NCBI GenBank assembly: GCA_020137815.1
Contig: CM035350.1
Span: 620,001-684,000, forward strand
Length of the DNA stretch: 64,000 nucleotides
Source: Hormiphora californensis
Lineage: Eukaryota; Animalia; Ctenophora
Direction of reading: 5' to 3'
Under the pieces are notes generated by a model that saw nothing but the letters and a program-made list of their open reading frames with translations, was not told the DNA's origin and made no database searches. Made by a program: the position numbers and the translations under genes. This document shows, in pieces, positions 9,301 to 12,300 of the stretch; the stretch's first letter is position 1, and the number at the start of each line of letters is the position of its first letter.

Positions 9301-12300
9301 ACCACTACACGCGACAGACTCTATGACTGATGTCATATGTTCCCCCCCATTTCATCAAAATCGAGAAAGGGGGAGCTTAGCGCCATAGTTACCCATACCC
9401 GGGCGGTATGGGGTTTGCTCCGCGTTTGGCTAAGTAACCCAAAAAATACCTGCATTACTGCAACTAATGGTATACCTGTGACTGCAACTATAATGCAACT
9501 ATAATGCAACTATAATACCTGTAGAAGAGAGGCGAAGTTGTTGTGTTGCCGGCACAGTTTAGCTACTGTCACCCACTTTATTATAGTCTTGGCCCTGGTA
9601 GTGGCTGTCTCCCCTGCTAACACTTCACTTGCTACCATATTGCTCATTTTGTCACACCTCTGCAAGGCATAGGGGTTTAGAAATCTGTAACGGATATAGT
9701 GACTATCTGTAGGTACACTTACCCCGGTTACTTACTTGCATTATGGAGCATATGTGAGGGGCTCTCTCCTTATCTTTCACCCACGCTTTATCCAGGAACT
9801 CACTGTGGCAGAAGGAAAGTTATAAACAATATTTCAATCGGAAATAGGAAAATAAGATATCCAATACTAATTAGCTCAATTCGCGTTCGAAAGCACAAAC
9901 AAAGAGGATCCAACACCCCCTCAACCCACTATATTTCCCCAAAGAAACACCCCCTCCTCTCCTCAAAGAACAACCATCAAGAATAAACACCCCCCTCAAG
10001 CCACTTTCTTACTTTGGTGTAATCTCTGTGAGGGCCCAGTGTTCTAGAATAGTGAGTTGTTGGGCGAGCATCTCACACTCAACAGGCAGGCCCGATAAAC
10101 AGGAGTAGTTTCCACTCTTGTTGAAGTAATGATTGTATATATCTGCAATGGGGTAGGCCGGCCTGGCAGACTCCTGCAAAGCTAACGACCTGAGAATGTA
10201 TGGAGATTAGATACAGGGTGATACACACACCACGGTGAATTTTATGGAGTTTGTAGCGGTATCTGTATACTGTATAGTGGGACAAGTACAAACTCAGGGT
10301 TTGGAGTGGTCTCTATCCTGATACATTAGTCAGCACACCCCAAACACGAATATAGTATGTGACTATACAGTCTACTGTACAGCTATAATAATACGACTCC
10401 GATGAGCTGTGAATTCATTGTGTGAATTCATTGTGAAGATTGGTGTATAAAGCAACATTCAATTTAGCGGCTCACTGAACGAATTCATGATTATTGAATG
10501 TCTGCAGTTCACTTATATTCTAGATTTTAGAAAAAAAAGAGAATGGTTCCCGAGACCAGTGCTTGGCATTAACAGCAACTATAAATACCAGCTGCACATA
10601 ACACATTGCTGGTACTACAGATCATGTAGGTGCCAATCTATTTATCTTGACCGGTCATGAACCCCCCTCTAATCAGATATAGCTATATGTCATATATACC
10701 AGCAGGTAGAAGAAGTACAAAGATAAATCAAATCATATAAGTTAATGGGAATGCATGTTATTACATCAAGTTCATATTGGATCTTTACAAACGTTGGGCT
10801 TCGCCTAGACCAGAGTTTACCACAGTAGCTCATGAAACTTCATATTTGGATTATTCTACACCGTCATATTTGAGATTCCTGGTGTTTTCGGAAATCTAGT
10901 ACCCCGGGAAGTCGATTCCAAACTTTCATGATGATTAGAACTGTGGTTCGGTCTCCAGATTCCAAAAAAGTTTCCACTTCCCGGGTACAAAAGAGACACC
11001 ATAGGAAGTAGGAACCTTGAATGAGGGTATAGAATAGCCCAAGTATGAAGTTTCATAAGCCACTGCAATCTTGTAAATTTTTGTCTGCCCACTGTTTTTA
11101 AAGATCCAAAATGAACACCCTGTATTTCAATAGTTCCCCCTTACCTATGTATGATGTTGACAGCCTTCCTGCCGCATTGGGTCATGTTAGAGTCGTTAGA
11201 GGCGACCTGCTCAAGGAAGGTCATGAGGCGGTGGTGTAGTGTTGGATCGGTCACAAAGTCTTGGTAGTATTTACTGATCCAGCTCTTGATGACATTAAAC
11301 ACCCTCATAGCCACCTCACTGTAGTACTTGGCAGCCATGAACACCGACTCAGAACTGGATGGGGGTGTATTGTTAGTGGGCAACACAGAGCAGCAATGTA
11401 GCAGCCGGAACAGTTTATCAGTATCATATCAGATTGTTGATGACATCCCCTCAGTTCGTTTAGCCGCATGGCTAGTGTAGGGGCGACTGCGTCACCAAAT
11501 TAGATTGTGATTACAAACCTGATCGAGTGCCGGGGAGGTGGGGAGTGTTTCTCGAAATTATTATTTTTAGGTAGGTATGATGGGCTCTCCGGTACCCCAT
11601 TATCATGGTAGCTATAGGGTGGGAGGTGTGAGTAGTAATCTGTAATAGTTGACATGGCTAGAATTGGTAGAATAGGAACTCAAAAGGTGCTTACCGTTAC
11701 CCACTCTCGCACATGTTATACTCGTTACCTTGGCTAATGCATCATAGTAAGTGTTGATGATATACCCCAGCACTGTATGACCATCAGTGAAACACCGGTA
11801 GGTCAGCAGGAAGGTGTTCAAATATTCAACACCCAGAAACCGAGCATCCATCAGTCGTTCCAGTAGCTTATCAAGACTCGCATATCGCACCTAGGAGGGT
11901 CGGGTGTTAGGTAGCTTGTCAAGACTTGCATATCGTACCTAGGAGGGATGGGTGTTAGGTAGCTTGTCAAGACTTGCATATCGCACCTAGGAGGGTCGGG
12001 TGTTAGGTAGCTTGTCAAGACTCGCATATCGCACCTAGGAGGGTCGGGTGTTAGGTAGCTTGTCAAGACTTGCATATCGCACCTAGGAGGGTCGGGTGTT
12101 AGGTAGCTTGTCAAGACTTGCATATCGCACCTAGGAGGGTCGGGTGTTAGGTAGCTTGTCAAGACTTGCATATCGCACCTAGGAGGGTCGGGTGTTAGGT
12201 AGGGACTTTAAACAAAACATTGTCCACTGTATCTGCCCTGTGACCAGTGTATTGTCCGATCTCAGAGGGAATGAGTGTATCTTACGGGAAGGGAGTAGTC

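Follow-up and report, generated by a model that had tools for sequence, protein, structure and literature searches.

Minisatellites that span a splice junction, termed mirages, have been described in amphioxus in the globin genes BflGb6 and BflGb9 and in Adh3 (PMC3087553), with further cases in Adh, troponin C and PGBD5 (PMC3902484). Amphioxus mirage units measure 10-160 bp (10-72 bp in Adh3), and the mirage of BflGb6 lies on the acceptor side, has 6 or 3 units depending on the haplotype and leaves splicing normal (PMC3087553). In humans, the CBS variant 844ins68 duplicates the junction between intron 7 and exon 8, and the distal copy is strongly favoured, so that normal mRNA is made (PMC2630376). 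Human junction VNTRs have also been reported in F7 IVS7 (37 bp, 5-9 copies), CBS IVS13, IFI6 (6-16), LMNB2 and PDGF (PMC1557585). Here, we describe seven 48-bp units across the acceptor of the REM exon of a RasGRF gene, found in the window (the whole stretch of 64,000 nucleotides that was analysed). The array is probably a splice-junction minisatellite of the mirage kind, likely born by slippage and functionless, with splicing predicted to go mainly to the last copy. Nothing points to a selected role of the upstream copies as decoys.

The RasGRF acceptor array and its host gene

Tandem Repeats Finder, applied to the window, returned an array of period 48 with 7.1 copies, 96% matches and 0 indels (Table 1), a repeat far beyond chance. 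Read on the minus strand, each unit joins 24 nt from the intron end to the 24 nt with which the REM exon opens. The intron half carries CTAC, CTAAC, a C-rich tract and TAG, and the likely branch A, within CTAAC, is 17 nt away from its end. The exon half, GTG...AAG, encodes VRYASLDK. CTAAC and TAG are retained in 7/7 copies; a CTAAY motif is also found near other acceptors of the gene. Only copy 7 opens the intact exon. From copies 1-6, translation meets an in-frame TAG after 15 codons (VRYASLDKLPNTRPS and then the stop, with a copy 5 variant that ends in THPS), these TAGs being located at 12181-12179, 12133-12131, 12085-12083, 12037-12035, 11989-11987 and 11941-11939 of the minus strand. The anatomy proposed in the initial annotation held: the seven tandem copies over the acceptor, the CTAAC, pyrimidine tract, TAG/GT and eight REM-exon codons in every unit, the stops behind all copies but the last, the CTAC microhomology, with CTAC at both array ends, and the upstream donor, whose boundary is 14889/14888. 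No further copy of the unit was found elsewhere in the window, and a search of JGI metagenomes found 0 copies.

Table 1. Features of the RasGRF locus, in window coordinates
Feature	Position	Strand	Basis or remark
RasGRF gene with PH, DH/RhoGEF, REM and CDC25/RasGEF exons	6344..28423	-	Pfam and mapping of the Bolinopsis protein
REM (RasGEF_N) exon, 162 nt, phase 0-0	11729..11890	-	Pfam RasGEF_N E 3.8e-12
Minisatellite ('mirage'), 7 units of 48 bp	11863..12202	-	Repeat finding; junction in short-read contigs
CTAC microhomology, exon side	11863..11866	-	
CTAC microhomology, intron side	12199..12202	-	
Authentic acceptor module, copy 7: CTAAC 11910-11906, C-rich tract, TAG 11893-11891	11891..11914	-	
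Six upstream copies (spare acceptors)	11915..12202	-	Read in frame, each stops at the next copy's TAG
Copy 6 variant: intron-side changes at 11949 and 11948, GTG>GTA at 11936	11936..11949	-	Resembles a strong donor
Intron that hosts the array (2998 nt; phase 0; longest among 23 modelled RasGRF introns)	11891..14888	-	
Upstream exon RSDPKLFADG...QTPK, donor AAG/GTTAGC	14889..14964	-	

The assignment of the gene to RasGRF and of the exon to REM, also made at the outset, was confirmed by the Pfam match and by a RASGRF1-like protein of Bolinopsis microptera, the closest relative, to which the REM exon is identical at 54/54 residues; other exons are less alike, so that the window likely belongs to a different ctenophore. 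This Bolinopsis protein clusters with Mnemiopsis proteins. About 175 residues (about 362-535 of the homologue) were unrecoverable because the assembly is garbled where they should lie. A search for relatives of the REM exon in JGI metagenomes yielded 159 pattern matches, 0 of which were confirmed. For counts of splice sites, we used a gene model with 23 introns from which a false exon (27948-27919) was excluded. Owing to indels in the assembly, the exons of the model, once joined, gave no clean translation. Among the 40 differences between reads and window that were listed, out of 54, the exonic ones were synonymous third positions in 10/10 cases, a pattern that makes the gene look functional and suggests that it is under purifying selection.

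Several further observations concern the gene and its surroundings. P0002, a fragment of a ctenophore-like relative, stops after GVEYL as though an intron followed, whereas the REM exon of the window is uninterrupted at this point, so that RasGRF intron positions differ among ctenophore-like sequences. A 76-nt RasGRF intron at 9660-9735 (minus strand) is absent from the fragment P0010, which reads SIMQRCDK unbroken. Over 9652-9735, short reads are tens of times deeper than on either side, and loose ends occur at 9664 and 9712; this intron is possibly repeat-derived and recently gained, and it has no second copy in the window. A Yippee-like gene at 20311-20616 (plus strand; Pfam E 1e-4, a match that falls short of the curated cut-off) lies within the RasGRF span on the opposite strand; in one ctenophore genome, gene nesting is frequent (PMC8527503). 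The window also contains a tektin gene (5134-5600, plus), a single-exon alpha/beta hydrolase gene (30820-32103, minus), ADAM/reprolysin exons (44850-52880, plus) and a 333-aa ORF (37347-38345, minus) that has no Pfam match above the cut-off and is, at a guess, possibly retrotransposon ORF1-like.

Faults of the assembly were noted at 11605/6, 11651/2, 11673 and 11697 (single bases absent from the short-read alleles) and near 25605 (an apparent frameshift within an exon). Garbled homopolymer-rich stretches at 13000-13400, 15700-16900 and 21100-22550 hide exons, and a run of A occupies 828 nt at 33388-34215. Two near-identical segments, 39268-39468 and 40839-41039, flank an N gap at 40110-40209, where possibly both haplotypes were assembled in a row.

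Copy number and variation among the units

Short-read contigs from 4 DNA runs, belonging to two samples (S1, runs X1 and X4; S2, runs X5 and X6) and two studies, were compared with the assembly over 12112-12340. The contig alignments cover the last copy in one stretch and the first two copies in another; the order of the units and the exact number seven are those of the assembly. The unit-to-unit junction was present in contigs of 4/4 runs, and an X1 contig steps back 48 bases at the last copy. In S1, which may be the sample behind the assembly, depth over flank was 3.8-5.7, compared with 4.0-6.0 expected from the assembled array, contig depth not being a copy number in itself. The S2 values were 6.7-21.9 for X5 and 28-33 for X6, a rough guide only in view of their unevenness and of chimeric-looking loose ends. 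We read this as a real array, with ~5-7 units in S1. It is probably longer in S2 and is probably a minisatellite of variable length.

Copies 1, 2, 3 and 5 are identical. Copy 4 differs from this majority unit by GCG, copy 7 differs by GCG and GAT, of which GAT is private to it, and copy 6 has changes on both sides of the junction (Table 1). No contig with all three copy 6 changes was found among the S1 contigs (3 in X1, 14 in X4), those below 99% identity having all been explained; contigs drop variants, and this absence neither confirms nor refutes GTA. In X4, a unit with GCG and GAC, which the contig bounds suggest to be of the copy 4 type, had a depth of 139 vs 342 for the flank, suggesting that it is located on one haplotype. 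A contig with one difference in X6 (depth 1650) places that difference, according to its 31-mer bounds, at 12165 or 12166, that is, at position 2 or 1 of a serine codon, and a non-synonymous unit variant thus likely exists in X6. By the same kind of bounds, X5 contigs point to intron-side unit variants at 12141/12140.

These data bear on two claims made initially, that the copies differ at third codon positions and that such synonymous-only variation hints at exchange with coding alleles. For the first claim, GTA, GCG and GAT are indeed third-position changes in the assembly, but the intron-side changes of copy 6 had gone unmentioned. The second claim was upheld in part. GCG, common to copies 4 and 7, agrees with an exchange that involved both the array and its coding copy. 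The argument from synonymous changes is weak, however, because GCG and GAT sit in the coding copy 7 itself, where selection explains them. GTA is the sole exon-side change private to a non-coding copy, and it would be synonymous by chance about 1 time in 3; for 3/3 changes under random transitions, the chance is P ~0.05. The likely non-synonymous variant in X6 also counts against the claim.

We also asked how often repeats fall on splice sites. Tandem repeats make up 14% of the window, and complex repeats with a period of 10 or more make up 5.5%; in one ctenophore genome, 13% is tandem repeat (PMC8527503). Among the 47 RasGRF splice sites (23 acceptors and 24 donors), 1 lies inside a local repeat, namely the array acceptor alone. 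Repeats with five or more further copies occupy 1.6% of positions as background, or ~1.0% without the array itself, which gives 0.5-0.75 expected splice sites in repeats and a probability of 0.38-0.53 for at least one among the 47 sites of this one gene. In this small sample, repeats at splice sites show no sign of enrichment over the repeat density of the window. Short tandem repeats at 7919-7954, 9483-9516, 14978-15090, 25324-25359 and 25654-25921 are located <=60 nt from five other RasGRF splice sites and do not cross them.

Origin of the array and choice among its acceptors

The array probably began with two CTAC words 48 nt apart, between which slippage, or a repair guided by microhomology, would have produced one duplication; units would later have been gained and lost by unequal exchange. 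The four identical copies, the presence of GCG in copies 4 and 7 and the higher depth in S2 argue for such exchange. The array would be tolerated because the extra copies land on the intron side and copy 7 stays joined to the full exon. In P0002, the same exon is entered at the same residue, and there is no repeat upstream of the acceptor (1/1 relative with intron sequence); judged by the P0002 translation, the array is thus absent in 1/1 relative with a readable intron end, a thin sample.

How splicing would choose among the copies has to be considered from their position, as the acceptors are alike in sequence and folding. The array showed no special structure (z +1.09; 87/100 shuffles were as stable), and predicted folding exposes copy 7 no more than the other copies. 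Copy 7 would be expected to win because it alone precedes the whole exon and is nearest to the downstream donor. The exon defined from copy 7 measures 162 nt, and those defined from copies 6-1 measure 210-450 nt; RasGRF exons have a median of 85 nt and a maximum of 210 nt (21 exons). Exon definition and junction-dependent NMD are assumed here for ctenophores from other animals. A stop located more than ~50 nt before a downstream junction triggers NMD, and the stops reached from the upstream copies lie 162-402 nt before the next junction. NMD would be likely to clear transcripts that were spliced onto an upstream copy, as predicted by this rule from other animals, and a leak of such transcripts to NMD is plausible. 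Against a neutral reading stands the finding that 7/7 copies keep branch motif and AG, and that neither sequence nor folding singles out copy 7. Experiments with tandem duplications conflict, in that the proximal copy was used in those of one group and the opposite was found by another (PMC1557585).

If splicing to upstream copies rose with copy number, NMD would lower RasGRF output, whether as a side effect or as a selected trait. We consider this unlikely. The six intact spare acceptors with NMD-type stops are what it calls for, the depths suggest that copy number differs between samples, and there is human precedent, as CBS intron 13 and IFI6 (6-16) also use one or two pseudo-sites and a title cited in that report ties the CBS VNTR to reduced activity (PMC1557585). 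However, P0002 does without a repeat at the same acceptor, repeats occur at splice sites at chance level, and amphioxus acceptor mirages splice normally (PMC3087553). A chain of self-correcting splice traps, in which mis-joins are re-spliced to the last copy or cleared by NMD and RasGRF output is tuned by a copy number that varies among individuals from ~5 to perhaps 30, appears quite unlikely. If it were true, the array would offer a natural allelic series for the choice among identical acceptors, in the sister group of other animals.

Rescue by re-splicing, which we regard as very unlikely, starts from the fact that the 14889 donor joined to an upstream copy regenerates AAG/GTGCGA. This site could be re-spliced to copy 7, also as a recursive chain, to give normal mRNA. 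With a weight matrix from 23 RasGRF donors (a small set that includes the 14889 donor itself), the regenerated site scored 7.2 vs 2.5-10.6 for real donors and ranked at the top of 7 AG/GT junctions. The copy 6 junction scored 10.5 with the same matrix, but its use would need an intron of 48 nt vs 65 nt for the shortest seen, and G at +3 is found in 1/23 real donors. The host intron, as the longest modelled in RasGRF, would suit recursion. Normal splicing, however, forms the same site, which would then need suppression, a task that the exon junction complex performs in flies and mammals (PMC8184009). AG/GT is present at 7/23 RasGRF acceptors and is therefore not special in this gene.

It is highly improbable that an upstream acceptor serves to make a useful truncated isoform, consisting of the PH-DH-PH part without REM and CDC25. 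The truncation would indeed part the DH/PH half from the Ras-GEF half, but the stops lie far upstream of later junctions, and 0/7 long cluster members (Bolinopsis, Mnemiopsis, MetaClust) end here, a weak count given that a truncated form could cluster elsewhere. Assembly stutter over a genome with one copy is extremely unlikely: indel errors and garbled stretches do occur nearby, but junction contigs are ~4-6x as deep as the flank in S1 and deeper still in S2, and unit variants are present in the reads. The single copy in raw reads that the initial annotation had named as fatal to its proposal was thus not what was found, with the junction in contigs of 4/4 DNA runs and an S1 depth near the assembled multiplicity. 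Hardly credible at all is the ongoing gain of an intron through tandem duplication of an AG/GT site, a model that the array was initially said to resemble. In its favour, AG/GT is present in each unit, copy 6 is donor-like and mirages have been put forward as a source from which new introns could form (PMC3087553). Against it, the unit is half intronic where the AGGT model needs an exonic segment (PMC3443670), an exon cut out of the units would always include the in-frame TAG or finish with it, an exon of zero length would leave the mRNA without an additional intron, and P0002 shares the acceptor position without the repeat, which means that the host intron is older than the array.

Comparison with known splice-junction repeats

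A tolerated minisatellite at the RasGRF acceptor belongs to a repeat type that is already known from lancelets and humans. No ctenophore splice-junction minisatellite was found in the literature covered, in which mirage reports are all from lancelets and to which subscription papers did not belong, and the RasGRF array is possibly the first ctenophore example. As it most likely stands, it extends the type to a ctenophore-type gene and suggests that minisatellites of this kind form wherever tandem repeats abound, and that they are tolerated there. In practical terms, the array could be used for a test of acceptor choice with identical acceptors, diagnostic variants and copy numbers that probably differ between animals. 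Control of RasGRF dosage by copy number, or the repair of mis-joins through re-splicing, would make it more important.

Two models with juxtaposed splice signals resemble the array in part. The AGGT model of intron gain also involves duplicated AG/GT sites, but there exonic sequence is duplicated and a new intron is made (PMC3443670), whereas the RasGRF array copies an old acceptor and creates no new exon or intron. At recursive splice (ratchet) points, an acceptor and a regenerable donor are juxtaposed as in the RasGRF units (PMC8605326, PMC8184009). The RasGRF intron, in contrast, is only 3 kb long, and its AG/GT sites came about incidentally, when an exon that happens to begin with GT was copied.

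Among the human cases, CBS 844ins68 likewise duplicates an intron/exon junction at the 5' end of an exon, but it consists of two 68-bp copies linked to c.833T>C (PMC2630376), whereas the RasGRF array has seven near-identical 48-bp copies. The human junction VNTRs are polymorphic and reiterate a splice site into the intron, and the site beside the intact exon dominates; they lie on the donor side, in contrast to the acceptor-side RasGRF array (PMC1557585).

Like BflGb6, the RasGRF array repeats in tandem the 3' end of an intron together with the 5' part of the next exon (PMC3087553). Its 48 bp fall within the Adh3 range, many amphioxus copies also keep AG/GT, and in both systems the inner units are homogenised and the boundary unit is distinct, as seen here in the identical copies 1, 2, 3 and 5 and in GAT of copy 7 (PMC3087553). 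Unlike the amphioxus mirages, the array is located in a ctenophore-type gene and has 48-bp units with seven acceptors that are all intact. Its unit of 16 codons is in phase 0, so that each spare copy terminates at the TAG of the copy after it. Of 6 mirage features considered, including length variation, at which the read depths hint, and undisturbed splicing, for which exon conservation gives indirect support only, the RasGRF array shares 4: a unit that spans the boundary, the unit size, retained signals with an intact boundary copy, and homogenised inner units.
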